Shown: positions 2,835 through 23,082 of the stretch, piece by piece
Numbering within the stretch: position 1 is the first letter of the stretch
How the letters are laid out: the number at the start of each line of letters is the position of its first letter
NCBI GenBank assembly: GCA_022561055.1
Contig: JADFRY010000001.1
Coordinates: 57,025 to 121,024, forward strand
From: Nanobdellota archaeon
Lineage (GTDB): Archaea > Nanobdellota > Nanobdellia > Pacearchaeales > GW2011-AR1
DNA: 64,000 nt
Reading direction: 5' to 3'
Made by a program: the position numbers and the translations under genes
The notes under the pieces: model-generated
What the model was told of the DNA's origin: nothing
What the model saw: the letters and a program-made list of their open reading frames with translations, nothing else
Databases searched by the model: none

Positions 2835-2877
2835 AGCTCAGGTTTGAGTTATTAGCAAACTTTAAATAGATTATTGA

Positions 2878-3489: not shown

Positions 3490-3516
3490 TTTTAGGAAAG
3501 TTTAAATAAGGTTTCT

Positions 3517-4125: not shown

Positions 4126-4159
4126 AAACATATTTAAATAAGTTTTAGTTGGTTAAGTT

Positions 4160-4821: not shown

Positions 4822-5667
4822 TTATTTCTTTTTCCTGGTTCTTTTTCGTGTTGGAGTTTTATGAGTTGTGTGATGTACTGGTTTATGAATTTGTCTTTTC
4901 ATTTCTGGGAGTAGTTTTGTAAATGATTTTTGAGTTTCAATTAGTTCTTTTTTCATATCTTCAATGTTTATTACATAGTCACCGACTTTTCTCAAGACAG
5001 AGGATTGAAGAGAGCCTATAATTTTTTCAATTCTTTTCAATCTTTCGTCTACAGATTCTATTTTAGATTCTACAGTTGTTTTGAAGTCAAGAACTTTTTC
5101 AAGATGTTTTCGCATGTCTGACATTTTTTCCGAGACTACTTGTTCAGAGATTTCTGTTATTGTGTCAGAGCTTATTCCTGCTGGTTGATATTCATATTCT
5201 GAATAGCCTAATTCTTGCTGAGGATAACCTGGATATTGGGGTGCATATTCTTCTGTTGGGTATTCTTGTGAAGAAGGGATAGGAGAGTATTCTGGAGTTT
5301 CTGATGTTGGTGTTGGGGTTCCCAAATATTCTTGGGTTGGTTGTTGTGGTTGAGATTGCATTATTGATTCTTGCATTCCTGGAATTTCTTTAGTGGCAGG
5401 TTTTATAGTTTGTCCGGTGGTTTGTATTTGGGTCAGTTGTTGTTTTGAGTCAGGGATTGGTATTTCTGCTTGAGGTGTTTGTTGTGCTGTGGGTGCAGGC
5501 ACTTTAGGTTCTGATGCAGGTTCTTCTACTGCAGTTTTAATTTTTGTTTGGGAGAGCGCCTCAGAAATATTTTTGTAAGGTATTCCCTTTTCTCTTAGAT
5601 TTTTTATTATTTCTTCTTCAGAGAGACCTTCCTGTTGCATTCTTTTTACTTCATCAAGCTCGCTCAT
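4822..5667 (-). CDS. coiled-coil protein with N-terminal small helical domain, Pro/Gln-rich linker and C-terminal coiled coil
   Basis: MSELDEVKRMQQEGLSEEEIIKNLREKGIP.. then low-complexity P/Q/T-rich ~130 aa, then heptad-like C-terminal region; basic tail. Confidence 0.4.
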   Translation of the reverse strand: MSELDEVKRMQQEGLSEEEIIKNLREKGIPYKNISEALSQTKIKTAVEEPASEPKVPAPTAQQTPQAEIPIPDSKQQLTQIQTTGQTIKPATKEIPGMQESIMQSQPQQPTQEYLGTPTPTSETPEYSPIPSSQEYPTEEYAPQYPGYPQQELGYSEYEYQPAGISSDTITEISEQVVSEKMSDMRKHLEKVLDFKTTVESKIESVDERLKRIEKIIGSLQSSVLRKVGDYVINIEDMKKELIETQKSFTKLLPEMKRQIHKPVHHTTHKTPTRKRTRKKK

Positions 5668-5669: not shown

Positions 5670-6062
5670 TTATCTTTTTATTAATTTAAGGTTTGGTTTG
5701 AACATATCAAATTGTCTTTGTAAAATCATTAGCTCTTCTTTTCTGGCAAATTCAGAGATTTGTTCTGACATTCTTTGAATAAATTCTTTCATTTTAATAT
5801 TTTCTTCTTTTAATTTTAGTATTTCTTTTTTCATTTCTTGCATTTCTCTGAAAGTACTCTCGCGCTCTTCAACTAAGTTTTGTCCAATTAGAAGAGTTCT
5901 GTCTTTCAAGAGTCTTTGCTTCTCTTCAATATCTCTCAATCTTGTGTTTGGGTCTGAGAAATATTGTTGGCTGGCAGGGTATTCTTCTGGCATGGTTATC
6001 ATAGGTGAAAGGAGTTTATAAGATTTCCGAGAAAATCTTAAGCCTTCACTTGTAGAGGACAA
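5670..6062 (-). CDS. coiled-coil protein (130 aa), translationally coupled to 4822..5667
   Basis: Stop at 5670 three nt from downstream start 5667; heptad-rich sequence. Confidence 0.4.
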   Translation of the reverse strand: MSSTSEGLRFSRKSYKLLSPMITMPEEYPASQQYFSDPNTRLRDIEEKQRLLKDRTLLIGQNLVEERESTFREMQEMKKEILKLKEENIKMKEFIQRMSEQISEFARKEELMILQRQFDMFKPNLKLIKR

Positions 6063-6086: not shown

Positions 6087-6893
6087 TTACTTGTAGTTTG
6101 TTTTCTTTTTAAATAAATATTCTACGAAGAAGTAAAAAGAAAAAATTCCAAAGCCAAAGGGGATATATCCTAAATAACCGAATAAAGGCATTTCAAAAAT
6201 ATGAAGAAAGTTAATAAACGGTATAGTATAAATCCATTTCACACTAGCCCAAAAATTCCAAAATTCCCATAGAAAGCCAAGAGTGAGGGATGAGATAATA
6301 AGATAAATTATAGATTTTTGTCTTGTTTTTAACATATAAATTATACTCGGTTGTTTATTAGCATAATTTATCGGGTCAAGAATAAAAAACATAAAAATCC
6401 ATATTAAAGGAAAAAAGTATTTTGGCCATATTAGAGGTAATATAAACATTAATGTGCCAAGAATAATAAAGATAAGAAATGTATTTTTAGTTATTTTATC
6501 TTTCGGCGTAGCTTTTTTAAAATTGATATTGAATAATTTGAGTGTCACAAAAAATGCAGGAATAACTGTTGCGAAAGAGATAAATGCGAACAAATCTCCG
6601 TAAGGACCGAAAAATTCTGTTCCGATATAATGCCAATTATTTACTCTAAGATTAACATATTCAAAGATTTTCCAAAACGGAGCAGAAATAATAAACATTC
6701 CAATTAACATCGGCAGATTATTTTTAATAAGGGATTTTCCTTTTATTTTATAAGCCAGAGAATCTATAAATAAAATATATCCAAGCCAAATAATAGGAAA
6801 ATAGAATTTTTCAAATGGCTGTATTTTTAGAAAAAAATTTACTTCGGAGAATATTATTAATAATAATCCAATTATTCCATAGATTTGTATCAT
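6087..6893 (-). CDS. polytopic membrane protein (8 predicted TM, Cys-free)
   Basis: Highly hydrophobic 268 aa, Trp/Phe-rich; no catalytic motif recognised. Confidence 0.4.
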   Translation of the reverse strand: MIQIYGIIGLLLIIFSEVNFFLKIQPFEKFYFPIIWLGYILFIDSLAYKIKGKSLIKNNLPMLIGMFIISAPFWKIFEYVNLRVNNWHYIGTEFFGPYGDLFAFISFATVIPAFFVTLKLFNINFKKATPKDKITKNTFLIFIILGTLMFILPLIWPKYFFPLIWIFMFFILDPINYANKQPSIIYMLKTRQKSIIYLIISSLTLGFLWEFWNFWASVKWIYTIPFINFLHIFEMPLFGYLGYIPFGFGIFSFYFFVEYLFKKKTNYK

Positions 6894-6983: not shown

Positions 6984-9293
6984 GTGGTTTATATTCAACT
7001 AAAAGAGGAAAAAATGATTTTTCAGATGAATTCCCCGCTTTATGCTGTCGAAGTAGAAAGAAAAGAAGGTGAGAATCTAATGTATGTTAATTTTTTAGGA
7101 GCTTCCTTTACACCTTCTATTGCTGATTTTCCAGAAGTAATGGCGAGAACAATAGATTTATTAATTGAAAATCCAAATGTTTCTAGGATTATTTTTGTTC
7201 AACAAAGAAATTATCATTATCCCTTTGAGCAAGTTTCTATTTTGAGTGATATTGCACAACTCTATAATTTCTTAATGCGGCAGGAAAGAGTTTTATCAAC
7301 TGAGAAATTAAGTTTGTTAGCTAATGTCAGTGTCGCGCACGGTGAATTAAGTTATTTGATGACCTTATTAAGGCAAGACCCTGTTGCATGTTATCTTGAA
7401 CTAAACAAGAAAATTAAGGGATATGAAGAAGACATAAGTTCTGGTACGGTTGTTGGCGGAGATAGTTCTAGACTCATGAATTATATTAGATTATTGAAAA
7501 GAGTTAAAGGGCTGTTGGAGAATACAAAGTTAATAAAATCTGTTTTAGATGTTATAGATACTTATAGTGCTGGCGATAGGACAGTTTATAAGTCTATTTT
7601 TAGACCAGACATTTTGCCCAATTTTACTTTCACTAGGTTAGTTGCGCAACTGCCGGAGAATGCAGAGTTAATCGACCAATATAAAATTGAGGCGGACAAC
7701 GAGAGCATTACTGTTACAATTCTGAAGAGAAAGGATGATTCAAGATATCTTTATCATATCATGCCGCCGGAATATTCTCTGAACGAAGAGCACCACATGT
7801 TACTGAATTTAGGAAGAAATGTTTTACTCGAGCATGAGCCAAAAGCAGAGGAGTTTACTGACCCAGAAAGAATAAGAGAGGTTTTTTTTAATGTTACTAG
7901 GGATTTATTAAATGAGCTTGCACAAAGTAAAAATATACCTCTTACTTATAGGGAATTAAATAGGTTAGCTAAGATACTTGTTAGGCAGACTATTGGTTTT
8001 GGTTTGATAGAGGTTTTACTAATGGATGATAAATTGCAGGATGTTTTCTTGAATGCGCCGATAGGACAAAATCCTATTTTTGTTAAACATTCTGTTTATG
8101 ATGAGTGTGTCACAAATATTATGCCGAGTTATGAAGATGCTGATTCTTGGGCTGCTAAATTAAGGTTGCAGTCTGGCAGACCTTTGGATGAAGCAAATCC
8201 TGTTTTGGATACAGATTTGGTTTTTGGCAAAGTAAGAGCGAGAGTTGCAGCAATTCAGAGACCTTTGTCACCATATGGTATTGCTTATGCTTTGAGAAGA
8301 CACAGAGACGAGCCATGGACATTACCTTTGTTTATCGACAATAAAATGGTTAATTCTTTTACTTCTGGACTATTAAGTTTTATGATTGACGGATCCAGGA
8401 CTTTGCTTATTGCTGGAACAAGGAGTTCTGGTAAGACTTCATTATTGGGTAGCTTGATGTTGGAGATAATGCCGAAAATTAGGACTATTGTTATTGAGGA
8501 CACTCTCGAGCTTCCAGTTGATTCGTTGAGAAAGATTGGTTATAACATACAAAGAATGAAAGTTAGGAGTGCTTTGCTTGAAACGACTACAGAGGTCGAG
8601 GCTTCTGAGGGTATTAGAGCTAGTTTGCGTTTGGGAGATTCTGCCTTGATTGTTGGTGAGGTGAGAAGCTCAGAAGCAAAAGCTTTGTATGAAGCTATGC
8701 GTGTAGGAGCCTTAGCAAATGTTGTTGCAGGAACGATTCATGGTGCTTCGCCTTATGGAGTTTTCGATAGAGTTGTTAATGATTTAGGAGTGCCTATAAC
8801 GAGTTTTAAGGCGACTGATTTGATTTTAATTGCAAATCCTATAAAAACTCCTGACGGGCTTCATGAACTTAAGAGAGTTGTTCAGCTTACAGAAGTTAGG
8901 AAACAATGGACTAAAGATCCTTTAGAAGAAAAGGGGTTTGTTGATCTTTTGAAGTATAATGTTGAAAAAGACGAATTGGAGCCTACAGATGAGTTGATTA
9001 ATGGAGATTCAGAAGTGATAAAGCAAATTGCAGGCAGTGTTAAGGGGTGGGCTGGGAACTGGGATGCAGTTTATGACAACATAATTTTGAGAGGAAAAAT
9101 AAAACAAGAGATAGTTAATATATCGAGAAAATTGAAAATTCCTGAATTGATGGAAGCCAAATTTGGCTCGTTGTCTAATGATGCTTTTCATAGAATAAGT
9201 GATGAAATTACGAGGGAAGTAGGTTTGCCAATTTCTGAAAGAGTTTTTCCTGAATGGAAAAAGTGGTTTATGGTAAAAGTTAAGAAGAAGTAA
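6984..9293 (+). CDS. type IV pilus / archaellum-family secretion ATPase (FlaI/PilB/VirB11 superfamily) with ~400-aa N-terminal extension
   Basis: Walker A 'GTRSSGKTSLLGS', Asp box 'IVIEDTLEL', 'VGEVRSSEAKAL' His-box region; adjacent platform protein and pilins. Confidence 0.8.
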   Translation: MVYIQLKEEKMIFQMNSPLYAVEVERKEGENLMYVNFLGASFTPSIADFPEVMARTIDLLIENPNVSRIIFVQQRNYHYPFEQVSILSDIAQLYNFLMRQERVLSTEKLSLLANVSVAHGELSYLMTLLRQDPVACYLELNKKIKGYEEDISSGTVVGGDSSRLMNYIRLLKRVKGLLENTKLIKSVLDVIDTYSAGDRTVYKSIFRPDILPNFTFTRLVAQLPENAELIDQYKIEADNESITVTILKRKDDSRYLYHIMPPEYSLNEEHHMLLNLGRNVLLEHEPKAEEFTDPERIREVFFNVTRDLLNELAQSKNIPLTYRELNRLAKILVRQTIGFGLIEVLLMDDKLQDVFLNAPIGQNPIFVKHSVYDECVTNIMPSYEDADSWAAKLRLQSGRPLDEANPVLDTDLVFGKVRARVAAIQRPLSPYGIAYALRRHRDEPWTLPLFIDNKMVNSFTSGLLSFMIDGSRTLLIAGTRSSGKTSLLGSLMLEIMPKIRTIVIEDTLELPVDSLRKIGYNIQRMKVRSALLETTTEVEASEGIRASLRLGDSALIVGEVRSSEAKALYEAMRVGALANVVAGTIHGASPYGVFDRVVNDLGVPITSFKATDLILIANPIKTPDGLHELKRVVQLTEVRKQWTKDPLEEKGFVDLLKYNVEKDELEPTDELINGDSEVIKQIAGSVKGWAGNWDAVYDNIILRGKIKQEIVNISRKLKIPELMEAKFGSLSNDAFHRISDEITREVGLPISERVFPEWKKWFMVKVKKK

Positions 9294-9354
9294 TTTTTAT
9301 ACAGAGAATTGAAAACAATTATTTAATTTAACAATCATATTTAAAACTTTTTTA

Positions 9355-10326
9355 TTACAATCTGACTCTACTAAGCTTATCCATTTCTGTTATAAGCTTT
9401 TTTTCTGTTTCTTTATCAGAAGCACTATGTCCTCCTAGAGTAAAATATAACTTCGAACCTTTGATTCTTTCATGTAATGCATATGCTGATAAAGGACTAC
9501 ATACGCAATCATATCTTCCATGGACTATTGATACGGGTATTTTATTAAGCTTAGGCGCATTTTTTAAAATATAATCCTTGGGTAAGAAACATTTATGAAC
9601 TAAGTAATGAAGTTCGATTGAGGAAAACGCTTCGTATTTGATTTCTTTTAACCATTTTTTAATTTTTTTGTCAGATGGAGAGAGACATGATACTGAAAAC
9701 TCATATTCTGCCCAGGCACGCGTGAACTTTTTACGGGTTTTTTTATTTTTAGCTTTTATCATTTTGTAATAATATTCTTCTATAAGCCTTTTTTTAATAT
9801 ATTTTTTTGGGATTATAGATGTAAATTTTTTCCATGCTTCCGGAAAGATATTTCTAGATTCATAGATAAAATAATCGTTTTCTTGTTTTGATGCTAGGAA
9901 GATTCCTCCTATAACTATGCCTGCTATAGTTTTAGGATAGTTGATTGCATAAACTAACGAGAGAGTAGAGCCCCAGCTTCCTCCAAAGAGAAAGGTTTTT
10001 TTAATTTTAAGATGGTCGAGAAGTTTTTTTATATCTTTAATTAATTTTTGAGTTGTGTTATTTTTTAAAGATGCAAATGGTTTGCTTTTTCCAGATCCTC
10101 TTTGGTCAAAAGTTATAATGTTAAATACTTTCGGATTAAAAAATCTTTTATGTTTTTGGCTAAAACCTCCTCCAGGGCCACCATGGATAAAGAACACTGG
10201 CTTTCCCTTTGGATTACCGCTTAGTTCATAATAAATTTTGTGTCTGTCGCCAACATTAAGATATCCTTTTTTGTAAGTTTTTATATTTTTGTAAACCATA
10301 TTAGCCGGCAATTCCTCCGAGGGCAA
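9355..10326 (-). CDS. pip: proline iminopeptidase-like alpha/beta hydrolase (S33)
   Basis: 'FFIHGGPGGG' and nucleophile elbow 'GGSWGSTL' (GxSxG). Confidence 0.7.
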   Translation of the reverse strand: MPSEELPANMVYKNIKTYKKGYLNVGDRHKIYYELSGNPKGKPVFFIHGGPGGGFSQKHKRFFNPKVFNIITFDQRGSGKSKPFASLKNNTTQKLIKDIKKLLDHLKIKKTFLFGGSWGSTLSLVYAINYPKTIAGIVIGGIFLASKQENDYFIYESRNIFPEAWKKFTSIIPKKYIKKRLIEEYYYKMIKAKNKKTRKKFTRAWAEYEFSVSCLSPSDKKIKKWLKEIKYEAFSSIELHYLVHKCFLPKDYILKNAPKLNKIPVSIVHGRYDCVCSPLSAYALHERIKGSKLYFTLGGHSASDKETEKKLITEMDKLSRVRL

Positions 10327-12457
10327 CTCCTGCTAAGATAGAAAGAGTGAGAATTGATAATAATGCTGTTGCTATGTAAAGTAGGATTCCTCTTTTTAAG
10401 TTTCGGGATAGTTCGTATTTTTCTCTTAGTTTGTCTTTTCCGGCATCTACTGTAACTAATGTTGCTGTCAGTATGAAAATTATTTCAACAATGTAAATTC
10501 CTATCGATACTTGTATGAAATAAGGAGGAATCATTTCTGTTATGTTGAATATATTTGTGATGTTTGCTATTGAGCCGAAGCCTGCTAATTCTTGGCCTCC
10601 TAGTCCTGCGGTTGTCAGGCCTTGTAATCTATTTAGAATCATCGTAATCATCGCTGATAGACCAACTACAATTCCTGCTAGTAAAGGTGCGAGGAAGACC
10701 ATGTTTGATTTCATGTCTGAGACTACTTCTGCCAGTAAATCACGGAGTCTTTCATTGATTTTTTGGATGTTTTTTACATACTCAGAGATTGACATTAGAC
10801 TTCTTGCCGCTATTTGAAGACCTTTTTTAACAGACTCTACTAAAATCCTCATGCTTGTTGCAATTAAGGCAGAAGGATAGTAAATTATTGCGCCTCTTCT
10901 CGGATGGAATATTGCTTTTTCTAAAGACATGCCTCGTTGTTGTATGTTTTGGCTGACTAGACTGAAGAAAGTTTGAGTTCTTTGTCCTTGAGTTAATTGA
11001 GCAATTTTTGAAAATGCGATTTCTGCAGGAGTTCCGTCGCCCAGTCTGTTTCCCAACTGGAATAATGAATTTGTGAATTCACTTTCAAGTTCTATTGTTT
11101 TATTTCTTGCTTTTATCAAGTCTCTGGTTTTCATTTTGTATGTTATTGAGAAAAATAAAGCGATTGATAAGGGGATGAAGAGACTCAGTAAGATTGCTAT
11201 TATTCCAAAAGGTCCTACCACATCGCCGTTTTGTAGTTGTTTAAAGTCAAATATTTTTAAATCTTGAAAAAATGGAAGACCGAGTTCACTGAAAGTATAA
11301 TCGCTTTGCAGGCCTAACGGGCCAGTTATAAAATCTATTTGGAATATGAATGGTAGAAATCCTAAAATTAGTAGAGGTAAGGCTATTGAGAAAGCGACAA
11401 ACCAAGGTTTTCTGGATTTGAATTTATAATATTGTGGATTTAATTCTAAGATTGAAGTTTCGCCGTAACCACCGGGTCTTTTTAGCAAGACTTCCGAAGT
11501 CATGTAAAATACGAGAAATGGTATGATTAAATTGAAGAAGATGAAGATGTGGTGCCATTGTATTAATCCGCCGAGAAGAGTCGATGCCAATGGTAAGAGA
11601 GCAAGACCGAGTGTTGGGAGAATAATTCCGAGCATGTATAAATTTGTTAGAGGACTTCTAATTTCTCTCGAATAACGGAGCATTTTTTCGTAGACGCCAT
11701 CGAGGATTACTTGTAATGCTTTTTCTAAAATCTGCACTCTTCTTGTTTCTGATGGCTCGTAAAGACTCGATTCAATTAAATGGAAGGATTCGATAAATTC
11801 TGGTGCATAATCGCGCCATGTTTCTAAGTAGTTATCGAGAGATTGTTTTATGCTTGAGAATTTGCCGACTTCAACGTCGTAAAATACTTTTTTGAAATCC
11901 AGAGAAAGCGGGGTTGGGAGATGTTGTGAGGCAAAATCTATTGCTCTTTCTAAATTTGAGGTGTGTTTCATATATACTACAAGATATAAGATTGCAGGAA
12001 CCATTTGAGAGGAGGCTTTTAGGCGCCAGGAGTTTGCCAATCTTCGCGGCATTGTATATATATAATAGAAAACAAAGAGGCTTGCTAATATCCCGAGGAA
12101 GGCGAATAAGAGTTGAATTGTTCCGGTGACTAGATATATTGCCATGGTGATTAAAATAATGCCAAAGAAAATTAGCAATAAAGAAAATACTGCGAGAGTT
12201 AGAGCTTGACTCGGAGTGACTTCTAAGTGAGCTATATCCAGATATTTTTGTACTTTTTCTTTTTCTTTTTTTGAGATTTTTATTTTTACTAAGTTTCCTA
12301 AAGTTTGAGCCCATCTTCTATAGCGCGACATTTCTGGAAGCATTTCTTGTTTGAATGTGATATACTCGCGAGAATATCTTTGGTCAGCAGAAGAAGAACG
12401 CATTTCAGTCTCTATTTTTTTACTATATTTTCTGAGAATTTCATCTGTTGTCGGCAT
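10301..12457 (-). CDS. type IV pilus platform membrane protein (FlaJ/TadC/PilC-like, T2SS-F domains)
   Basis: 718 aa, two blocks of TM helices separated by cytoplasmic domains; sits between ATPase and pilin genes. Confidence 0.6.
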   Translation of the reverse strand: MPTTDEILRKYSKKIETEMRSSSADQRYSREYITFKQEMLPEMSRYRRWAQTLGNLVKIKISKKEKEKVQKYLDIAHLEVTPSQALTLAVFSLLLIFFGIILITMAIYLVTGTIQLLFAFLGILASLFVFYYIYTMPRRLANSWRLKASSQMVPAILYLVVYMKHTSNLERAIDFASQHLPTPLSLDFKKVFYDVEVGKFSSIKQSLDNYLETWRDYAPEFIESFHLIESSLYEPSETRRVQILEKALQVILDGVYEKMLRYSREIRSPLTNLYMLGIILPTLGLALLPLASTLLGGLIQWHHIFIFFNLIIPFLVFYMTSEVLLKRPGGYGETSILELNPQYYKFKSRKPWFVAFSIALPLLILGFLPFIFQIDFITGPLGLQSDYTFSELGLPFFQDLKIFDFKQLQNGDVVGPFGIIAILLSLFIPLSIALFFSITYKMKTRDLIKARNKTIELESEFTNSLFQLGNRLGDGTPAEIAFSKIAQLTQGQRTQTFFSLVSQNIQQRGMSLEKAIFHPRRGAIIYYPSALIATSMRILVESVKKGLQIAARSLMSISEYVKNIQKINERLRDLLAEVVSDMKSNMVFLAPLLAGIVVGLSAMITMILNRLQGLTTAGLGGQELAGFGSIANITNIFNITEMIPPYFIQVSIGIYIVEIIFILTATLVTVDAGKDKLREKYELSRNLKRGILLYIATALLSILTLSILAGVALGGIAG

Positions 12458-12597
12458 CTACAAACCTCTTTTTTATTTATTTAGTAATGAAAAGGAAAGT
12501 TATAAAGATTGCTAACGAGTTTTGTTGGAGTTTTATTGGAAATGAATGTTTTGCAGGAATGATTAGATTTATAATAATTGGATTATTTTATTATCAC

Positions 12598-12753
12598 ATG
12601 AAGAAAAAAGGGATAATTGTTGCGCAGAGTATGATTGTTTGGTGGATTCTTGCAATTCTCGGTTTAGTTGTGTTACTTATTTTGTATATGGTTTTTAGTG
12701 GGAAAGGCCAGGAGCTGATTGAGTTTTTTGAGAATGTAAGGAGGTTTAGATGA
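12598..12753 (+). CDS. mini pilin-like protein (51 aa) with class III signal peptide
   Basis: Internal start MKKKG|IIVAQSMIVWWILAILGLVVLLIL inside listed ORF 12448..12753; stop overlaps next gene start (ATGA). Confidence 0.35.
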   Translation: MKKKGIIVAQSMIVWWILAILGLVVLLILYMVFSGKGQELIEFFENVRRFR

Positions 12754-13559
12754 ATAAACGGGCAATTGCAGGAATAGCTGTTGTTAGTATAATTTTAGTG
12801 GCATTTGCGTTGATTTTAGGTACAGTGATTATTTGGAAATCTTATGGTGGTTCTGGAGGTTTTATTAATATATTTAAGATTATTATTCCGAGTTTTGGGG
12901 GAGAGCAGCCGAGGGCTGAAGAAATTGTAATAATACGTTATGGTATTTTAGATGATAATGTGCAGTATTCTGAAGACGGTAGAAACTGGTTTGATTTTCC
13001 AGAATTACTCGTGGTAGATGATAAGGAATTTAAAGGAAAAGATTTAAGACAGGATTTTGAGGGTTATTATTATGGTGAAGGGAGACAGAATGAATTGCCT
13101 GTTGATATAAAACTAAGTCCAAAAGCACAGTCTGAATTTTATCCAAAGAATTTTGAAATTCCCTTTCTTAATGCCGAGATTGAAAGATTTTGCAAAGAAA
13201 AAGATGATATTAGATGTAAGCTTGGTGGTAAGAGTGTGGGTCCTTATTTTGTAAGAGTTCTTTTGAAGAATTATGCTGGAGAAAAACTTACAGATGAAAG
13301 ACCTGGAACAGATTATGGTGATTTTTTAGTAAGCCTTGATGGAAAGATTTTCTTTAGAGAATCCGGTAAGTCTGGTTCTGGAAGGAGTGAGGTTACTAAG
13401 TTAACTGATAGTCATAGGACAATTATTAATGCAGTTAGTAGTTGGAGAGAGAGTGTTTTTGAAAAGCCTATTACTATCTCAGGTTTTGGCGATTTCGAAA
13501 CTGAGAAGATCGATGATTATATTGTGGTAAATTTGAATGAACTGTTTAAGTTAAAATGA
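12750..13559 (+). CDS. pilin-like protein with N-terminal class III signal/TM
   Basis: MNKRAIAG|IAVVSIILVAFALILG then soluble domain. Confidence 0.55.
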   Translation: MNKRAIAGIAVVSIILVAFALILGTVIIWKSYGGSGGFINIFKIIIPSFGGEQPRAEEIVIIRYGILDDNVQYSEDGRNWFDFPELLVVDDKEFKGKDLRQDFEGYYYGEGRQNELPVDIKLSPKAQSEFYPKNFEIPFLNAEIERFCKEKDDIRCKLGGKSVGPYFVRVLLKNYAGEKLTDERPGTDYGDFLVSLDGKIFFRESGKSGSGRSEVTKLTDSHRTIINAVSSWRESVFEKPITISGFGDFETEKIDDYIVVNLNELFKLK

Positions 13560-13668
13560 AAAAAGGTCTAACTGGAGAGTCTATGACTTCAATCTTGGTA
13601 TGGATTATATTTTTTGCTTTAGCTGTGGCTGCAGTTGTTTTTTTGTTGTTGAGGAGACTCGCTTCGTA
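13556..13668 (+). CDS. mini pilin-like protein (37 aa), not in ORF track
   Basis: ATG 13556 overlaps stop of upstream gene (ATGA); MKKG|LTGESMTSILVWIIFFALAVAAVVFLLLRRLAS = canonical archaeal prepilin signal KKG + hydrophobic helix. Confidence 0.45.
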
Positions 13669-13700
13669 ATTGTTATAAACTCTGTATTATTTTAGTTCTT

Positions 13701-14732
13701 ATGGATTTTAGCAAAAAGGGGGAGCTGACATCTACGCAGATTATTGGAATCGTTTTGGCGATAGCTGGTTTCATAGTTGTTTTGATTTTTTTAGCTATTA
13801 TTTTCAAGGATAAGGGAGAAACTAATAGAGAGCTTTGTCTTCTTTCTGTTATTACGAGAGCGACAGCGCCAGATGTATTACAATATAAAATTCCTCTGAA
13901 ATGCACGACTGATAAGATTTGTATGACTAGCAAGCTATTCGGAGGAAAATGTAAGCAATTTGCAGGAGAGGAAAATGTGAGGGTTGTTAAGCTGAAAGGT
14001 AATGTTAAAGAAAAAGCAAGGATTATTGAAAGAGAATCTGCTAATGCGATGTTTGATTGTTGGAGCATGATGGGAGAAGGAAAAGTAGATTTGTTTCATA
14101 ATTTGCCTGAGAAATTTATTGGCAGTTCAGGAGAGCCAACTTGCGTTATTTGCAGTAGGGTAGCAGTGTCGGATGATGTCGATGAATTAATTCTTAAGGA
14201 AGTGGATTTAGGCGAGTATTTAAGAAAAAATCAAGTTCCTGGCTCGAGTTTAACTTACTTACAAACTTTTACTGATAGGAGTGTGAATGCTTATGCTTCT
14301 GAAGAAGGTGTTAATTTTGAGAGTCCGAATGAGAAGAATAAAGCTCCAAAAGAAATTAGGGGTTTAAGTGATAATCAAATTGCTTTTGTTTTTTCGCAGG
14401 TTAAGACTGAGAAGGTTGGAGATGTTTTGACAAGTTTGGGAGGTGCTGTTGTTGGAACCGCATTTGTGATTCCAGGGAATTTGAAAATTGCAAGAGCGCT
14501 TTTTCTTGGTCCCCAAGCTATCGTAACTGTTCTTGTTGTTGGAGGAGTAGCAGCAGCTGTTGGATTTAATGCTTATTCGGGAAGAACAGCTGCGGCTGGC
14601 TATTGCGGAAATTTTGTTAGTAATGTGGAAGAAGGCAAAGTTAGATCTGGATGTTCTTTAGTACAAGCAGTTAATTACAATGTTCAGGATATTAATGCGT
14701 TGTGTCCGAGCAATGTACAGGGAAGTCCTTAG
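13701..14732 (+). CDS. pilin-like surface protein (class III signal peptide), Cys-containing
   Basis: MDFSKKGE|LTSTQIIGIVLAIAGFIVVLIF. Confidence 0.55.
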   Translation: MDFSKKGELTSTQIIGIVLAIAGFIVVLIFLAIIFKDKGETNRELCLLSVITRATAPDVLQYKIPLKCTTDKICMTSKLFGGKCKQFAGEENVRVVKLKGNVKEKARIIERESANAMFDCWSMMGEGKVDLFHNLPEKFIGSSGEPTCVICSRVAVSDDVDELILKEVDLGEYLRKNQVPGSSLTYLQTFTDRSVNAYASEEGVNFESPNEKNKAPKEIRGLSDNQIAFVFSQVKTEKVGDVLTSLGGAVVGTAFVIPGNLKIARALFLGPQAIVTVLVVGGVAAAVGFNAYSGRTAAAGYCGNFVSNVEEGKVRSGCSLVQAVNYNVQDINALCPSNVQGSP

Positions 14733-14737
14733 TTAAG

Positions 14738-15349
14738 ATGAGAAAAAAAGGAATTTTAATAAAAAACGTGATGGCGTTGGTTATCGCAGTCATCGGTCTT
14801 TTGATACTTTCTGTAGTGGTTGTTAGATTATATCAGATTAATGTAAATCAAGAGCAAGAAAATGCACGAAAGACGATTGATAATATTATGGGAAAAATTG
14901 TGCTTTTAGAGGACGGCGAGATAGGAAGGTTTGCGATTCAGGGTTTTAAAGGTTCTAAAAATTGGTATTTGGTTGGATGGGATAAAAGATTTGAAGATAG
15001 GCCTGATAAATGCTTTTTGGACAATTGTATTTGTATTTGTAAGGGGAATACCCCAACTGCTTGTCAAAGTACGGGTTTTTGTAGAAATGTAAAAAATGAG
15101 GAGGTCTTTGTTTATTCTGAATTAGTAGTTTCTGGTGTTCCGCCTGCTGGGGAGATTAGGTATCCGGCATGCATAAGTTTCTTTCCTAGTTTACAAGAGA
15201 TCCAAGTATACAAAAATATTTCTCATTTAACTATCTTCTCAGAGACAGGAGGAAGAGGTTCATGTAAAGTGATAGAAAAAAGAGGTTATTTTCCTCATTA
15301 CAGGTTTCAGTTACCTTTATATTTATTGAATTATTTTCATTTATTATGA
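14738..15349 (+). CDS. pilin-like protein (class III signal peptide), Cys-rich
   Basis: Start moved to MRKKG|ILIKNVMALVIAVIGLLIL (listed ORF starts 14702 inside upstream gene). Confidence 0.55.
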   Translation: MRKKGILIKNVMALVIAVIGLLILSVVVVRLYQINVNQEQENARKTIDNIMGKIVLLEDGEIGRFAIQGFKGSKNWYLVGWDKRFEDRPDKCFLDNCICICKGNTPTACQSTGFCRNVKNEEVFVYSELVVSGVPPAGEIRYPACISFFPSLQEIQVYKNISHLTIFSETGGRGSCKVIEKRGYFPHYRFQLPLYLLNYFHLL

Positions 15350-15789
15350 ACAAAAGAGGAGAAAGCGCAGGAGATAATATTCTTTTCAATAATTTGATTT
15401 ATATGATTTTATTTATCCTATTTTTCTTGGGTATGTTTTATTATGTTTTAGGATTTCAAAATGGAGCTGCTTTATTGGAGGATTTTTATGCAAAAGAAAT
15501 TAGCAGGATGATTAACGCAGCCGAGCTAGGAACAGAAACAGAAGTTTCTTTAGACGTGACAAAGGCCACCGAAATTGCTTTTAAGAAAGGAGTCAGGAGG
15601 AGTGATATTTTTAATTTTGATAATGTCAATAATAAAGTCATAGTAAGTTTGAGACTCAATGGAGGAACCTCCTTTAATTTTTTTAATGATGTCGATGTTG
15701 TAGATTGGGATATTAAATTAGTTTCTGGAGGTATTGAAACGAATAGACTTTATTTTAAAATTGTGGAAAAGCAGAGGGAGTCAGAATAA
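15346..15789 (+). CDS. pilin-like protein (class III signal peptide)
   Basis: MNKRGESAGDN|ILFNNLIYMILFILFFLG; ATGA overlap with upstream stop. Confidence 0.55.
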   Translation: MNKRGESAGDNILFNNLIYMILFILFFLGMFYYVLGFQNGAALLEDFYAKEISRMINAAELGTETEVSLDVTKATEIAFKKGVRRSDIFNFDNVNNKVIVSLRLNGGTSFNFFNDVDVVDWDIKLVSGGIETNRLYFKIVEKQRESE

Positions 15790-15790
15790 A

Positions 15791-16255
15791 ATGAATAGGA
15801 GTATGAATAGAAAGGGAGATGCTGGGGATTCGTTGATGTTTTTTGCATTTTTCTTTTTAATGATTATTATTGGTGGGGGTATATCTTTAGGCTTGTATGC
15901 TTTTTATGGACAAGGCCATGATTTTCGTCAAGCAGAAGCAGATGTTTTAGGAAAGAGAGTCGAGGATTGCTTCATGAAAAATGATTTTTTCGAGGCAGGA
16001 TTTAATGAAACTATTTATAAAAAGTGCGGATTTAATAAAGGAGTTATTGAAAAAGACCATCTTATTTATGTAAGAAATCAAGTGGGAAATGAGTTTTTTA
16101 TCGGCGTTTTGGATTATAAAAATCAGTGTTTTTTTAAAGGTGCTGAAAAAAATAAGAATTTTCCCAGATGTGCGAAGTTCACAATCACAAAGAGCGGACA
16201 AGAATTTGAAGTCATAGTCGGAAGTAATCAAAATTCGAGGAGCATAATATTATGA
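15791..16255 (+). CDS. pilin-like protein (class III signal peptide)
   Basis: Start moved to MNRSMNRKGDAGDS|LMFFAFFFLMIIIGG. Confidence 0.5.
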   Translation: MNRSMNRKGDAGDSLMFFAFFFLMIIIGGGISLGLYAFYGQGHDFRQAEADVLGKRVEDCFMKNDFFEAGFNETIYKKCGFNKGVIEKDHLIYVRNQVGNEFFIGVLDYKNQCFFKGAEKNKNFPRCAKFTITKSGQEFEVIVGSNQNSRSIIL

Positions 16256-16839
16256 GAACTAAAAAAGGACAAATTGGGCAAATTATAACAAGTTTACCAG
16301 TTATAATTTTAGTATTTATTTTAATGCTTGTTTTTGTTATTGTTTCTGCAGCTGTTTTCGGAGTTAAAGGAGATACGGTAAAATCTGAACCTTCTTTGTC
16401 GAGTAGTTTGTTGTTAAAAGAAATTGAGATCGATGGAGAAAATATTTTTGTTTTTGATGCGATTAAGAATTTTGGGGTAATCTATTCTAAAGAAGGAGTT
16501 GAAAAAAAGGATATTTTTGAGAAAGAGCTGATGAAACTTGTTGATGAAAATAAAGATTGTCTCGTTCTGTTTAAGACTGATAAAAGAAAAGATATTTTGA
16601 GTGCGTTAAGAAAAGAGAACTTTTATTCTACGAGTCTTTTTATCATGGAATATATTGATGAAGAGGCAGTGCGTTCTTCTATTTTATCTTGGACTGACGC
16701 AGAGGATAAACTTAGATATCTCGGAAACAAATTTGGTTGGCCAGGTTCATTTAACGAAGTTTCTTATGTAAAAGATGAAAAACGTTTTTTTATTTATTCA
16801 TACTATGGAAGGTGTAAGAATGGAGCTACGAATGAATAA
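16252..16839 (+). CDS. pilin-like protein (class III signal peptide)
   Basis: MRTKKGQ|IGQIITSLPVIILVFILMLVFVIV; ATGA overlap. Confidence 0.6.
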   Translation: MRTKKGQIGQIITSLPVIILVFILMLVFVIVSAAVFGVKGDTVKSEPSLSSSLLLKEIEIDGENIFVFDAIKNFGVIYSKEGVEKKDIFEKELMKLVDENKDCLVLFKTDKRKDILSALRKENFYSTSLFIMEYIDEEAVRSSILSWTDAEDKLRYLGNKFGWPGSFNEVSYVKDEKRFFIYSYYGRCKNGATNE

Positions 16840-17299
16840 AAGAGGCCATATACCGACAATAATGCTTTTTTTTGGAGCTTTGATTTTGGTAATTGTAACT
16901 TTGTTTTCTTTTACTAACGTGAAAAATGAATTAGGAGGAGAGTCAGAGGATTTTAATATTTTAGTTCAGGAGATTGACTTCAAGAAGAAATATATTTCTG
17001 CTGTTTTTGAAAAGATAGTTGAGGAAGCAGTCGAGAGTACAGATAAATTAAAATTTGAGGAAAGTTTTAGTGTGACTTTTGAAAAAATAAGTGATAGAAG
17101 GGATCCGAAGGATGGCAGTTTTGGTAATTTTTTTGGCAGAATAAGAAACGAGAAATATACTATAAATAAGGAAAATGGGATTTATACTTTAACTATAGAA
17201 GATGTTTTTGTTAGCTCTAATGTCGAAAAGAATGAAATGAAAAGAACTTTTCCTCTGTCAATTAGATTTAATAAAGAAGGACTGATACAGAGGAATTGA
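16832..17299 (+). CDS. pilin-like protein (class III signal peptide)
   Basis: Start moved to MNKRGH|IPTIMLFFGALILVIVTLF. Confidence 0.5.
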   Translation: MNKRGHIPTIMLFFGALILVIVTLFSFTNVKNELGGESEDFNILVQEIDFKKKYISAVFEKIVEEAVESTDKLKFEESFSVTFEKISDRRDPKDGSFGNFFGRIRNEKYTINKENGIYTLTIEDVFVSSNVEKNEMKRTFPLSIRFNKEGLIQRN

Positions 17300-17333
17300 T
17301 TTTTGGTTGTTATCAATTCTCTGTCCTTCAACT

Positions 17334-17392
17334 TCAAGAATGCTGACAATTGCATTCTTGACAGCCGTCAAGAATCTTTGATTCTTGAGGGG
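17334..17392. repeat. two TCAAGAAT-stem hairpins followed by GGGG-TCCAAACAAACACGC
   Basis: TCAAGAATGC-TGACAATT-GCATTCTTGA (17334-17361) and TCAAGAATCTTTGATTCTTGA (17368-17388, identical to 2271-2291). Confidence 0.8.
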
Positions 17393-17459
17393 TCCAAACA
17401 AACACGCAAGAACTTTGAGGTTTCATAAGATTTATAAATAAGGGGAGTTTGTTTAGTAT

Positions 17460-18089
17460 ATGTTTGAAAAGAGGTTGAATAAGAAAGGGCAGGAAGGTTT
17501 GACTCTGACCACTTTATTGTTGATAGTTTTAGGAATTGTCGTAGTTGTTGTCATAATTTTGGGAGCGACAGGTATATTTGGAGATATTTTTGGTAAGAGA
17601 GAAGCGTTTCCTAAAGCTTTAGAGGCAGTTACGCAATCGTGTAAACTTGCAGCACAGGTAAGTTTAATTGCAGATTATTGTTATGAGTTTAAGAAAATTA
17701 GCGATAATGAGTATATTAATTGTGAAGATCCGAGGGTTCAGAGTAGTTTGAGTGAGCAAGGGATTATAGTTGGGTTTAGTTGTGAACCTAGTCTTACGAA
17801 GGACGCAAAGAAAGGAGTCTGTTTGGATTTTAGTGCTGCTAAGCAGAAAGAGGTAAGGGTTGGTGGAAGATTCTGTTCTGACATTATAGGAAATGTTAAG
17901 TGTGATGATATTGCTATAGAGGTTCCCAATGATAATCCTAAAACGGATTCACAGTGGAGAGTGCAGGGAGCTTGCATAAAGTTAGGGCCTTCAGATTTAA
18001 ACAAATATGATGATGTAACTTATTTAGTTACTGATTTTACTGGTAGATCCAATGAAAATGATGTTTGTTGTAAGGTTACAGAACTTTAA
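17460..18089 (+). CDS. pilin-like protein (class III signal peptide), Cys-rich C-domain
   Basis: MFEKRLNKKGQ|EGLTLTTLLLIVLGIVVVVVIIL. Confidence 0.6.
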   Translation: MFEKRLNKKGQEGLTLTTLLLIVLGIVVVVVIILGATGIFGDIFGKREAFPKALEAVTQSCKLAAQVSLIADYCYEFKKISDNEYINCEDPRVQSSLSEQGIIVGFSCEPSLTKDAKKGVCLDFSAAKQKEVRVGGRFCSDIIGNVKCDDIAIEVPNDNPKTDSQWRVQGACIKLGPSDLNKYDDVTYLVTDFTGRSNENDVCCKVTEL

Positions 18090-18378
18090 TTTCTTTACAA
18101 ACCAATTTAAACTCTTATTTCTATTTTTATTTCATGGGAAATGATTATGGGTATCCTGAGAGAAGGAAGACTAAGAAAGATAAAAAGATGAAGCGCCGTC
18201 GTAGGGTTTATAAGAAAGGTGGGAAGTTTAGGGTGACAAAGATAAGAGAAGGATCTGAAGATTAGCTCATCCATTAGTTCTTTATTATTGTGTTATCTTT
18301 GAATGTTGGGTTAATGGTAGTAATTAGAGATATTGATTATTAATAACTTTAATAAAGCATTTTTGTTTTAATTGATGT

Positions 18379-19206
18379 ATGGAAGAATATTATTTTTTGT
18401 TTGGGTTAGCTTTTGTTTGGATAGTTTTTGCAGTTGTGCAGGATTTGAGAACAAAAGAAATCTCAAACTGGTTGAATTTTTCTTTGATTGCTTTTGTTTT
18501 GGCTTATAGAGCTTTTTATAGTGTTTTTGTGAAAGATGTTATGTTTTTTGTTTATGGTTTTTTAGGAGTTTTATTATTTGTTGTTTTAGCGTATTCGTTT
18601 TATTATGGAAGGATTTTTGCAGGTGGAGATGCAAAGTTGTTGATGGGTTTGGGAGGTATTTTTCCTTATCAAAATTTTTATGATTATTTATATATTGGTT
18701 TTGGATTTATTTTTTTGCTTTTTACTGTTGGCGCATTTTATTCTTTAACTTACAGCCTTTTTTTAGTTAGTAAGAAAAGGAAAGTTTTTGCCAGAGAATT
18801 TAAGAAGGAGTTTATTAAAATAAAGAATTGGTTTTATTTTGCAATTATTTTAGCAGTTGTTTTCGGTGTGTTTTTTCGGTTTAATGAATTTGGAATTTTT
18901 AGTTTGAGTTTTTTGATTATTATTATTTTACCTTTTTTATATGCTTATGCCAAAGCTGTTGAGGTGGCTTGTATGATTAAACTCATTTCTCCCGGAAAAT
19001 TGAGAGAAGGCGATTGGTTGGAAAAGAATGTAAAAGTTGGGAGGAAAGTGATTAAGAAATCTGTTCATGGTTTGGCTTGGCAAGATATTGATGTATTAAG
19101 AAAAGCTAAGAAAAAAGTTTGGATAAAAGATGGTGTGCCTTTCACACCAGCATTTTTGTTTGCCTTTGTACTTTTTATCTATATTTATTTAAGGTATTTT
19201 GTGTGA
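18379..19206 (+). CDS. prepilin (preflagellin) peptidase, A24 family (PibD/FlaK-like)
   Basis: Polytopic membrane protein with 'VVQDLRTKEI' (first catalytic Asp region) and 'FAGGDAKLLMGLGG' (GGD-x-KL second Asp motif). Confidence 0.7.
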   Translation: MEEYYFLFGLAFVWIVFAVVQDLRTKEISNWLNFSLIAFVLAYRAFYSVFVKDVMFFVYGFLGVLLFVVLAYSFYYGRIFAGGDAKLLMGLGGIFPYQNFYDYLYIGFGFIFLLFTVGAFYSLTYSLFLVSKKRKVFAREFKKEFIKIKNWFYFAIILAVVFGVFFRFNEFGIFSLSFLIIIILPFLYAYAKAVEVACMIKLISPGKLREGDWLEKNVKVGRKVIKKSVHGLAWQDIDVLRKAKKKVWIKDGVPFTPAFLFAFVLFIYIYLRYFV

Positions 19207-19378
19207 TTACCCACCCAACCCGCCCTTTGCTATCATAATATATCCCTTACTATCATATACATCCCTTATTATCACAATACACATTTTGTTATCGCTATTA
19301 TCACAATATTTAGAATGGAGTTATGTAATTAATAGAGGAAGATTTAATATAGAAATTTAATATAGAATAATATAAAAT

Positions 19379-19990
19379 TTAAGGTATTTTTCTTTTTAGT
19401 TTTATTATTTTGGATTTTTCGGTTTTATTTTTTTTAATTTTGATAATTTCTAGTTTTTTCTCTTCTTTTAATTTTTGTAATACTTCTTTTAATTCTTGCT
19501 CATTTGCTTCGTGTCTTGGGGAATTTATGTTAAGAGGTTCGTCGTAAACAGGAATTATATTTATTATTACCTCGTTGAATTTGGATTCTGTTTGGATTTC
19601 TGTGTTTTTTGCTTTTAGTTTTGATATTATTTTTTTAGAAATTTGTTTTGCTAATGTGAAAGCTTGCTCTGGAATTTGGTTTGTGTTTTTGGCTGGTTTT
19701 TTTGGAATAATTATTGTGTGACCTTTTGATATTGGTCTTATATCGAGAACAGCAATTGCGTCGTTATTTTCGTCAATTTTTTTTGAAGGTATATTCCCTT
19801 TTATAATTAGTCTGAAGACTTTTGCATTCTGCATTTGTTTTTGCTGTTGTTTCAACATTAGTTCTAATGCTTCCGCAGACATCGAATCTATTTGTTTTTC
19901 GGCTTGTTGACGTTGTTCTAGAGGAAGATGTTGGATTTGCTCAGAAAGCTGTTTTTTTAGTTCTTCGATTTGGGTGGGTGTGAGTGGCAT
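19379..19990 (-). CDS. HIT-like domain protein with N-terminal coiled-coil/Gln-rich region
   Basis: 'DAIAVLDIRPISKGHTIIIPKK' matches HIT fold substrate region; histidine triad itself degenerate. Confidence 0.35.
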   Translation of the reverse strand: MPLTPTQIEELKKQLSEQIQHLPLEQRQQAEKQIDSMSAEALELMLKQQQKQMQNAKVFRLIIKGNIPSKKIDENNDAIAVLDIRPISKGHTIIIPKKPAKNTNQIPEQAFTLAKQISKKIISKLKAKNTEIQTESKFNEVIINIIPVYDEPLNINSPRHEANEQELKEVLQKLKEEKKLEIIKIKKNKTEKSKIIKLKRKIP

Positions 19991-20059
19991 TTTTAACCAA
20001 AAGCTTTCTTCCCATTTGTATTCGTTATCATTTTTAAAATACTCTCATCCAAAACTATA

Positions 20060-20140
20060 ACTTTGGAAAACCTCAAGAACTTTTAGTTCTTGGGGCCCAG
20101 AAAACTGATAAGTTTTCTGGGTTTGTAGGAGTCAAACCTA
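20060..20140. repeat. twin-hairpin element, copy 1 (paralog of 58343-58425)
   Basis: CTCAAGAAC-TTTTA-GTTCTTGGGG (20074-20092) and CCCAGAAAACT-GATA-AGTTTTCTGGG (20096-20121) then GGAGTCAAACC. Confidence 0.75.
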
Positions 20141-20413
20141 ACCAAAAGCCCTCCGATAATCTTCTATTTTTACAGATGAGACATTTTCTAGTTGATTCAG
20201 TTTTGATTCTATAATATCTGTGGATTTTTCTTCCGGCCAAGCCATTTTTAGCATTATCGCTTTAAGGCCGAAGGCAATTTCTTTTTCTTCGAAAGAAATA
20301 TTTTTTGCCCCTTGTTCTTCCATAGATTGTTTTGCTTTTTGCTCAATTTGTTTGAGATTCGTGTCTGGAGAAGAGGGCATTATTTTTACTATTACTGCTG
20401 CTATTCCCGGCAT
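20138..20413 (-). CDS. ef1b: translation elongation factor aEF-1 beta
   Basis: 91 aa; 'KIMPSSPDTNL..' and 'EEKEIAFGLKAIMLKMAWPE' match aEF-1beta family. Confidence 0.8.
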   Translation of the reverse strand: MPGIAAVIVKIMPSSPDTNLKQIEQKAKQSMEEQGAKNISFEEKEIAFGLKAIMLKMAWPEEKSTDIIESKLNQLENVSSVKIEDYRRAFG

Positions 20414-20531
20414 GATTTTGTGTATATTGGAAAGTTTTTAAAGATATGTTTGGCTTTCCTGTTTATATCTCTTATTGTATATGTCGTTTTTGTATCATAA
20501 TTCTTTTAAATGGCGGACGTTTTTGAGTGTT

Positions 20532-22957: not shown

Positions 22958-23082
22958 TGTCCCCACGGAGAATTGAACTCCGGTCTTAACCTATTCGCGA
23001 GTTCACTTCTTATGGTAGAGTTCATTACTAAAATGAGCTCCCTCACCGCAAGGTTATGTTCTATCCACTAAACTATGGGGAC
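22958..23082 (-). tRNA. tRNA-Arg (anticodon GCG) with ~53-nt intron at 37/38
   Basis: GTCCCCATAGTTTAGTGGATAGAACA-TAACC-TTGCGG..[intron]..A-GGTTA-AGAC-CGGAGTTCAATTCTCCG-TGGGGAC-A; acceptor and T arm canonical. Confidence 0.75.

Follow-up and report, generated by a model that had tools for sequence, protein, structure and literature searches.

The stretch of DNA analyzed here (the window) is 64,000 nucleotides (nt) of contig JADFRY010000001.1 from a Nanobdellota archaeon (assembly GCA_022561055.1), with a GC content of ~0.34. At positions 7014-19206 it carries a gene cluster with which a Pacearchaeota-type DPANN archaeon most probably makes the assembly machinery of a type IV filament (type IV pilus-like). 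The cluster comprises genes for a secretion ATPase, a platform protein, and an A24 prepilin peptidase, together with ten open reading frames (ORFs) whose products start with a class III-like signal. All four component classes of the complete type IV pilus system that an earlier note had proposed from the sequence of this DNA are present; the ATPase, the class III-signal proteins, and the peptidase have been verified directly and the platform protein indirectly. The filament is probably a non-motility structure with a role in attachment. The ATPase, the platform protein, and the product of an upstream gene match proteins of an NCBI metagenome-assembled genome called "Nanoarchaeota archaeon" (locus tags IIA87_00400 and IIA87_00425) with 100% identity. 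The nearest relatives are labeled Pacearchaeota, Woesearchaeota or Nanoarchaeota, and the cluster is standard equipment of Pacearchaeota-type DPANN archaea, ordinary for its lineage.

Within the window, the platform gene (- strand) and the ATPase gene (+ strand) lie on opposite strands with a prolyl aminopeptidase gene between the two. The ten class III ORFs run divergently from the platform gene, and the A24 gene follows them on the + strand. In a survey of one genome per GTDB species, the platform gene is present in at least 587 species-level genomes (Pacearchaeota/Woesearchaeota/Nanoarchaeota), and the ATPase and platform proteins retain 60-83% identity across hundreds of species. Comparison with 82 related loci, a check that the earlier note had suggested for DPANN genomes, reveals a conserved locus that occurs in two layouts. 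The layout of the window, with an inverted platform gene diverging from a pilin operon, 6-10 class III ORFs, and the A24 gene in last position, is found in 31 of the 50 loci having both platform and A24 matches. Labels on all 80 loci listed read Pacearchaeota, Woesearchaeota, Nanoarchaeota/Nanoarchaeia, Parvarchaeum or plain "archaeon".

The class III-signal proteins

A scan for the motif M..[KR][GA] followed by a hydrophobic stretch identifies nine consecutive + strand ORFs (p1 to p9); a tenth, the 37-amino acid (aa) ORF p2b at 13556-13669, falls below the length filter of the scan and was read in the sequence. The pilin operon is opened by p1 (12598-12753), a 51-aa micro-protein with the N-terminus MKKKG/IIVAQS (the slash here marks the putative cleavage site). 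It is followed by the 269-aa p2 (12750-13559, MNKRA/IAGIAVV) and by p2b itself (MKKG/LTGESMTSILVWIIFF, ending in RRLAS). Next come the cysteine-rich, 343-aa p3 (13701-14732, ..KKG/ELTSTQIIG), the 203-aa p4 (14738-15349, MRKKG/ILIKNV), the 147-aa p5 (15346-15789, MNKRG/ESAGDN), and the 154-aa p6 (15791-16255, MNRSMNRKG/DAGDSLMFF). The array ends with the 195-aa p7 (16252-16839, MRTKKG/QIGQII), the 155-aa p8 (16832-17299, MNKRG/HIPTIM), and the 209-aa, cysteine-rich p9 (17460-18089, ..NKKG/QEGLTLTTLLL). All ten are encoded on the + strand, and the eight besides p1 and p2b are pilin-like proteins. The earlier note's count of about ten consecutive, co-oriented class III genes is exact when p2b is included and is nine without it. 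That note had also called the array unusually long, which does not hold, as the 6-10 class III ORFs of the window-like related loci represent the lineage norm.

Translational coupling, also proposed earlier, can be read directly as four ATGA overlaps (p1/p2, p2/p2b, p4/p5, and p6/p7), to which an 8-nt overlap of p7 and p8 can be added. Gaps of between ~30 and 290 nt lie ahead of p3, p9, and the peptidase gene; the platform gene and p1 are ~140 nt apart. The sequence has an A/T-rich, TATA-like box ~20-35 nt upstream of the start codons that follow such gaps; the 160-nt gap ahead of p9, for example, holds the TATA-like box TTTATAAATA. Together, gaps and boxes suggest four or five putative transcription units, although in an AT-rich genome this is weak evidence.

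Comparison of the pilin-like proteins across the 82 related loci separates a conserved core from a variable set. The core consists of p3, the most conserved of all (66 loci), together with p4 (51), p5 (61), and p6 (59). In contrast, p2 (19 loci), p7 (14), p8 (28), and p9 (33) vary among relatives. The motif is kept in 59 of the 66 p3 orthologues and in all 33 of the p9 orthologues detected, 19 of which have Q at position +1. The pilin-like proteins resemble each other solely in the N-terminal helix, a restriction that is typical of type IV pilins, and the mature parts of their orthologues have diverged to 25-45% identity.

Two of the ten presumptive pilins are micro-ORFs, p1 (51 aa) and p2b (37 aa), which are conserved, carry a class III-like leader, and are of Flp/EpdE-like size. 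BLAST, which under-detects very short ORFs, finds p1 in 29 of the 82 loci, with [KR][GA] kept in 28 of these 29 orthologues, and in most window-like related loci the array is likewise opened by a class III ORF of 47-56 aa. The p2b ORF (full sequence MKKGLTGESMTSILVWIIFFALAVAAVVFLLLRRLAS), whose ATG overlaps the p2 stop codon, is missed by length filters of 40-60 aa. Of 45 related loci, 41 have a counterpart of 33-50 aa immediately ahead of the p3 gene, and 34 of these 41 carry the K/R-G/A motif by hand count.

It might be argued that such N-termini are ordinary membrane anchors or Sec signals, so that the cluster would consist of ten unrelated membrane proteins next to a secretion ATPase. An AT-rich, lysine-rich proteome does raise the background of KG and RG pairs, the class III proteins match no pilin family, and in several of them the spacing between motif and hydrophobic core is atypical. 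However, among ORFs of at least 100 aa, the motif is found in 8 of 10 inside 12440-18100 versus 5 of 79 elsewhere in the window, a 13-fold enrichment (Fisher p = 7e-7). Moreover, the motif is conserved at positions -2, -1, and +1: of 360 orthologous ORFs from the 82 related loci, 316 retain K/R at -2, G/A at -1, and a hydrophobic stretch behind them despite the divergence of the remainder of these proteins. In related loci having both, platform and A24 genes always flank the class III genes. A chance occurrence of the motif is rejected on enrichment and conservation, and ordinary anchors are a very improbable explanation of the array.

The A24 peptidase

The gene that closes the array (18379-19206, +) encodes a 275-aa prepilin/preflagellin peptidase of the PibD/FlaK type, which passes the threshold of the A24 family (PF01478, 43.5 bits versus a cut-off of 26.5). 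Its two predicted catalytic aspartates are D22 and D84, the latter within the sequence AGGD84AKLL, so that both the family and the GGD-x-KL motif named in the earlier note are borne out. The match to the NCBIfam FlaK model (E 2.4e-9) covers the N-terminal 100 residues only; an extra C-terminal region lies beyond it. An A24 homologue is present in 50 of the 82 related loci, and in 31 of these it closes a same-strand array of the window-like type. The gap between p9 and the peptidase gene holds a 43-aa, extremely basic ORF (MGNDYGYPERRKTKKDKKMKRRRRVYKKGGKFRVTKIREGSED, 18134-18265, +), and in one relative (L002) a 47-aa gene has been called in the equivalent gap.

The platform protein

The 718-aa polytopic membrane protein encoded at 10301-12457 (-) was described in the earlier note as FlaJ/TadC-like, with a match to the T2SS-F family as its touchstone. 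The window protein itself fails PF00482; the assignment is rescued by transitive homology and by structure. Among close homologues (65-78% identical), 8 of 68 give borderline matches to PF00482, with a best E-value of 7.5e-6, and in one of these (P0080) the match covers residues 471-582, a C-terminal stretch on the cytoplasmic side. When 1.84 billion representative proteins are searched with a family profile, 1179 relatives are retrieved. In a sample of 70 distant ones (E 1e-75 to 1e-110, ~25% identity, mostly aligned across most of the profile), 33 match PF00482, the best at 1.1e-15. The sole other recurrent family among these 70 is Spore_III_AB, which is itself GspF-like.

The AlphaFold2 model of the platform protein (predicted local distance difference test score (pLDDT) 80.9, predicted template modeling score 0.77) is an all-helical, polytopic structure with two cytoplasmic helical bundles. 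Local Foldseek alignments match it to the cytoplasmic domains of EpsF and OutF with a probability of 0.98-1.00, a target-normalized TM-score of 0.70-0.73, and a root-mean-square deviation of ~3 Å. When PDB sequences are searched, the profile of the broader family gives EpsF as its top match, a weak one (E 0.089), and the profile of the close family gives no T2SSF match. An hhalign comparison of the N- and C-terminal halves, based on an alignment of low diversity (Neff 1.7), yields no significant repeat that would indicate an internal T2SSF duplication, and the window contains no paralogue of this single 718-aa gene. Because these four lines (close homologues, distant homologues, the model match, and the EpsF profile match) agree with the position of the gene, which adjoins the pilin operon in every relative, the protein is regarded as a divergent platform of the TadC/FlaJ type. 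This assignment follows a chain of homology plus a model rather than a curated threshold.

The secretion ATPase

The ATPase ORF spans 6984-9293 (+, 769 aa), and the real start is most likely the ATG at 7014, which gives a protein of 759 aa (7014-9293); the GTG at 6984 is an ORF artefact, as the NCBI model, which is identical to the 759-aa protein, and all homologues begin at this ATG. The protein belongs to the VirB11/GspE/FlaI superfamily, passing PF00437 with 48.2 bits (cut-off 24.9). Its best PDB match is the Archaeoglobus secretion ATPase afGspE (2OAP, E 4e-28; query 217-625 against chain residues 27-412), with alignment of the SGKT (Walker A), IEDT (Asp box), GEVR (Walker B), and TIH (His box) motifs. 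CpaF, the second-best PDB relative, and FlaI also align. These matches corroborate the FlaI/PilB-family assignment made earlier.

That the ATPase is N-terminally extended is also correct, although the extension is neither as long as had been thought nor unusual. The protein exceeds afGspE (511 aa) and FlaI (513 aa) by ~250 aa rather than by about 400. The NCBIfam FlaI model positions 94-501 correspond to residues 295-712 of the 769-aa ORF, and ~190-215 of the extra residues (roughly nt 7014-7660), about half the size previously stated, are N-terminal; the remainder lie in the C-terminal part. All 120 homologues among the matches listed are ~740-810 aa long, most of them 750-760 aa, which is thus the lineage norm, and the extension is conserved at 59-78% identity within the sampled family. 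A predicted model of the first 224 aa (pLDDT 80.9), a structure prediction that the earlier note had suggested, shows a small alpha/beta unit followed by a helical bundle, to which Foldseek assigns no credible fold in the PDB (best E 0.38, probability 0.57). In archaeal type IV filament systems such extra N-terminal domains are reported to be subsystem-specific, and their proposed role is the docking of accessory proteins (Sivabalasarma & Albers 2026, bioRxiv 10.64898/2026.04.22.720090).

Kinship with FlaI raises the question of whether the locus could be a reduced archaellum, a rotary motility filament. FlaI is indeed the best NCBIfam match of the ATPase (125.5 bits), the peptidase matches the FlaK model, and some ATPase homologues carry the JGI label "archaeal flagellar protein FlaI". 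However, both matches are far under the equivalog cut-offs (125.5 versus 550 for FlaI, 37.1 versus 330 for FlaK), and FlaI ranks behind afGspE and CpaF among the PDB sequences related to the ATPase. Pfam searches at E <= 1 find no archaellin or FlaF/G family among the class III proteins. Neither the flanks of the locus nor the precomputed Pfam annotation of the related loci contains KaiC-like ArlH, ArlCDE, or ArlX. The earlier note's statement that archaellum accessory genes are absent can thus be extended from the locus to its flanks and to the annotation of related loci, none of which contains an archaellin, FlaF/G, FlaH, FlaCDE, or FlaX family. All archaellum-bearing archaea possess these seven components (PMC4858521), and archaellum ATPases are minimal, without extra N-terminal domains (bioRxiv 10.64898/2026.04.22.720090). 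With all accessory genes missing from the locus, an archaellum is rejected as the least credible of the readings considered here.

Layouts of the locus

Distant relatives (59-67% platform identity) that were mapped gene by gene have the ATPase, platform, pilin, and A24 genes collinear on one strand, with A24 inverted in one of them. The collinear layout is seen in L021, L036, L053, L059, L063, L064, L067, L072, and L078, and the inverted-platform layout in L003 and L013. The collinear arrangement is the canonical operon form, and the comparison implies that a single inversion inside the locus separates the two layouts.

The locus can also be interrupted. In the window, the gene between the ATPase and platform genes (9355-10326, -) encodes a prolyl aminopeptidase (TIGR01249, 321 bits) and overlaps the 3' end of the platform gene by 26 nt. 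Since only 4 of the 82 related loci have this gene at the equivalent position, it was rejected as a component of the system and is considered an incidental insertion. In the relative L001 (886-kb contig), an island at 13061-21391, consisting of an integrase and a complete type I restriction-modification system (two HsdM, HsdS, and HsdR), lies directly downstream of the ATPase gene and separates it from the rest of the pilus locus.

Evidence against a pilus and a possible pseudopilus as alternative

Several observations weigh against reading the locus as a type IV pilus. The class III proteins match no known pilin family, the Flp family included; Pfam searches of nine of the ORFs at E <= 1 returned noise only. 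In p4, p5, p6, and p2b, the putative cleavage site is separated from the hydrophobic stretch by 6-12 polar residues, and only about half of the N-termini would presumably pass the FlaFind pattern if it were applied strictly. No single major pilin is obvious among the ten. The platform protein has no Pfam or NCBIfam match of its own, even at E = 10, and the Foldseek E-values for its whole model are poor. Finally, the ATPase and platform genes are not co-transcribed at the window locus.

Such a set of many minor pilin-like genes with no clear major pilin would also suit a short pseudopilus or piston, of the kind used in type II secretion, competence, or the bindosome of Sulfolobus, which would serve uptake, secretion, or display instead of forming a long adhesive fiber. 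Class III-like proteins encoded elsewhere in the window (the 624-aa protein at 46691-48565 and the DUF2330 protein at 39153-40274) would be possible substrates in trans. In addition, binding proteins that bear a class III signal peptide (SPIII) have been proposed to functionalize archaeal type IV filament (TFF) machines (bioRxiv 10.64898/2026.04.22.720090), and organisms of minimal metabolism rely on scavenging (PMC7906910). Nevertheless, the ATPase scores 52.6 bits against the NCBIfam bindosome ATPase model BasE, which has a cut-off of 1000, and Pfam finds no substrate-binding-protein domain in the class III proteins of the cluster; both results speak against a bindosome (Bas). Likewise, no ComEC- or DprA-like gene is seen in the annotated flanks, and pili, though unassigned to Pacearchaeota, have been imaged on ultrasmall groundwater cells (PMC7906910). 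A pseudopilus is thus unlikely, if a more serious contender than an archaellum or a set of ordinary anchors, and a type IV pilus-like filament remains the preferred reading.

Comparison with known systems

In gene content, the locus resembles the type IV pili of euryarchaeal clade 2 (system 2), such as PilB/PilC of Haloferax volcanii. Each combines a single platform gene with an N-extended ATPase and several co-encoded, diverse pilins (Makarova et al. 2016, PMC4858521; Sivabalasarma & Albers 2026, bioRxiv 10.64898/2026.04.22.720090). A few nanoarchaeal ATPases have been reported to fall within clade 2. Variable-length minor pilins prone to duplication and the absence of archaellum accessories are common to both, and afGspE as the closest solved relative of the locus ATPase is an indirect sign of kinship. 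Unlike system 2, the locus has a platform protein too divergent for PF00482, pilins that match no known family, two conserved signal-bearing micro-ORFs (51 and 37 aa), and an A24 peptidase inside the locus.

Other features recall system 1, which includes the Epd pilus of Methanococcus maripaludis and the bacterial Tad-Flp pili. These systems also have large co-transcribed gene sets, many minor pilins, and a prepilin peptidase within the locus. Their major pilin lacks a globular domain, and p1 and p2b would be its analogues; CpaF, moreover, is the second-best PDB relative of the locus ATPase. However, system 1 is defined by two separate platform genes, TadB- and TadC-like (bioRxiv 10.64898/2026.04.22.720090), whereas the locus has one fused gene of 718 aa, as do the related loci examined gene by gene. 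The long N-terminal extension of the ATPase and the C-terminal region of the peptidase beyond its FlaK match also set the locus apart. With the archaellum (ArlI/ArlJ/ArlB together with ArlF, G, H and CDE or X), the locus shares a homologous ATPase, platform, and peptidase and subunits with class III signals. It differs in that ArlH, ArlF/G, ArlCDE/X, and an archaellin domain were not found and in the extra domains of its ATPase.

A precedent is found in the "dark matter" type IV pili islands of DPANN genomes, predicted in 2019 (Makarova, Wolf & Koonin 2019, PMC6393860, Fig. 2A). Their content and logic match those of the locus: genes for a FlaI-like ATPase and TadC accompany a series of signal-bearing proteins that lack detectable similarity and were interpreted by those authors as diverse pilins. 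Thus, this kind of system and its occurrence in DPANN archaea are already known, and the locus does not reveal a new one. Whereas that work gives examples only, the present analysis adds the anatomy of the system throughout the Pacearchaeota lineage, its two layouts, the conserved and variable pilin sets, the two micro-ORFs, the T2SSF ancestry of a Pfam-negative platform family, and an ATPase N-terminal domain without a fold match in the PDB.

A proposed model for filament assembly

By analogy with these systems, the ten small-to-medium proteins would enter the membrane by means of their class III signals, and the A24 aspartyl peptidase would remove the short basic leader after [KR][GA]. A hexameric ATPase of the FlaI/GspE type is envisaged to dock on the cytoplasmic domains of the TadC/FlaJ-like platform and, driven by ATP, to lift the mature subunits from the membrane and polymerize them, by way of the hydrophobic helices at their N-termini, into a filament on the cell surface. 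Its major pilin would be one of the ten proteins. Because p9 follows an upstream region of its own that holds a TATA-like box, and because its motif is present in every detected orthologue, often with Q at +1, it is a candidate for a separately transcribed major subunit. The 51-aa p1 is another candidate, as it is first in the operon, is conserved in size, and, like the Flp/EpdE pilins, has no globular domain. The conserved p3-p6 might then be minor pilins that prime or tip the fiber, and the variable p2, p7, p8, and p9 might confer lineage-specific surface or host specificity.

The completed filament would be used for attachment to surfaces or host cells, not for swimming. This role is plausible because Pacearchaeota show enrichment in the size fraction >2.5 µm, that of host-attached cells, and because pili-like appendages have been imaged on ultrasmall groundwater cells, in images that are not assigned to Pacearchaeota (PMC7906910).

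Neighboring genes and other features of the window

Divergently from the ATPase gene, the window encodes two coiled-coil proteins, one of 281 aa (4822-5667, -), in which a small helical domain at the N-terminus is accompanied by a P/Q-rich linker, and one of 130 aa (5670-6062, -). Of 59 related loci that allow the comparison, 52 have a homologue of the 281-aa protein encoded divergently from the ATPase gene and no more than 1.5 kb away, and 46 have a homologue of the 130-aa protein in an adjacent, divergent position at a distance of at most 600 nt. This linkage is as tight as that between ATPase and platform genes (gap <= 500 nt in 43 of 67). Searches of the pair against the PDB and Pfam return generic coiled-coil noise only, and nearly all homologues are without a Pfam domain; matches of PF08004 to three of them were not reproduced at E <= 0.1, and some carry the JGI label "MerR regulator". 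Linked to the system by synteny only, the pair could have a regulatory or accessory role in it, or its position could simply be inherited. The 268-aa multi-pass membrane protein encoded between this pair and the ATPase gene (6087-6893, -) has no Pfam match and no counterpart in the 82 related loci.

A more specific and distinctly speculative proposal combines these proteins with the micro-ORFs. Here, the filament would be built mainly of p1 (51 aa, ~46 when mature) or p2b (37 aa, ~33 when mature), the eight larger minor pilins would mediate host contact, and the N-terminal domain of the ATPase would dock the coiled-coil proteins (4822-5667 and 5670-6062) as a cytoplasmic accessory module. We consider this combination unlikely as a whole. 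If true, the micro-protein would be among the smallest type IV filament subunits proposed, the filament would be the archaeal equivalent of Flp/EpdE-type pili, which lack globular domains, and the ATPase N-terminal domain with the coiled-coil pair would constitute a previously undescribed cytoplasmic accessory module.

Outside the cluster, the 624-aa protein (46691-48565, +) matches no Pfam family but starts with a good class III-like sequence (..SRKG/QISFFIILAIVIVAAVVIFF); it is a possible pilus-associated adhesin or other A24 substrate encoded away from the locus. An N-terminus with [KR][GA] plus a hydrophobic stretch is also present in three more ORFs, the DUF2330 protein (39153-40274, +; E 4e-27) and two proteins without a Pfam match (56965-57924, -, and 25597-26430, -). 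These three may be true class III substrates or background.

Farther upstream, a + strand block (2535-4744) encodes a PRC-barrel protein (2535-2834, PF05239) and then two membrane proteins (2878-3489 and 4160-4744) that look paralogous, with a common ILPFLL[VI]F motif; a gene for an AAA/zeta-toxin-like kinase (3517-4125) lies between these two. In L001 and L002, too, a PRC gene followed by three uncharacterized genes of similar size lies ahead of the ATPase gene. An Rfam scan of the window finds transfer RNAs (tRNAs) only. Four of the seven matches, at 22958-23082 (-), 40350-40449 (-), 62601-62699 (+), and 55129-55213 (-), span 85-125 nt while covering the whole 71-position model, which suggests that these four tRNA genes contain introns.

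Implications

Few DPANN archaea are as metabolically reduced or as strongly attached to hosts as the Pacearchaeota (PMC7906910). The platform protein and all of the pilins of this system have been left "hypothetical" by automated annotation; micro-ORFs such as p1 and p2b can escape gene callers, and the platform family is missed by Pfam. To our knowledge, no member of the Pacearchaeota has been cultivated. Because it is so highly conserved (60-83% identity for ATPase and platform) in fast-evolving genomes, the locus is an obvious candidate for the source of the appendages seen by cryogenic transmission electron microscopy. Its map separates the conserved p3-p6 from the variable p2 and p7-p9 and thus provides concrete targets.

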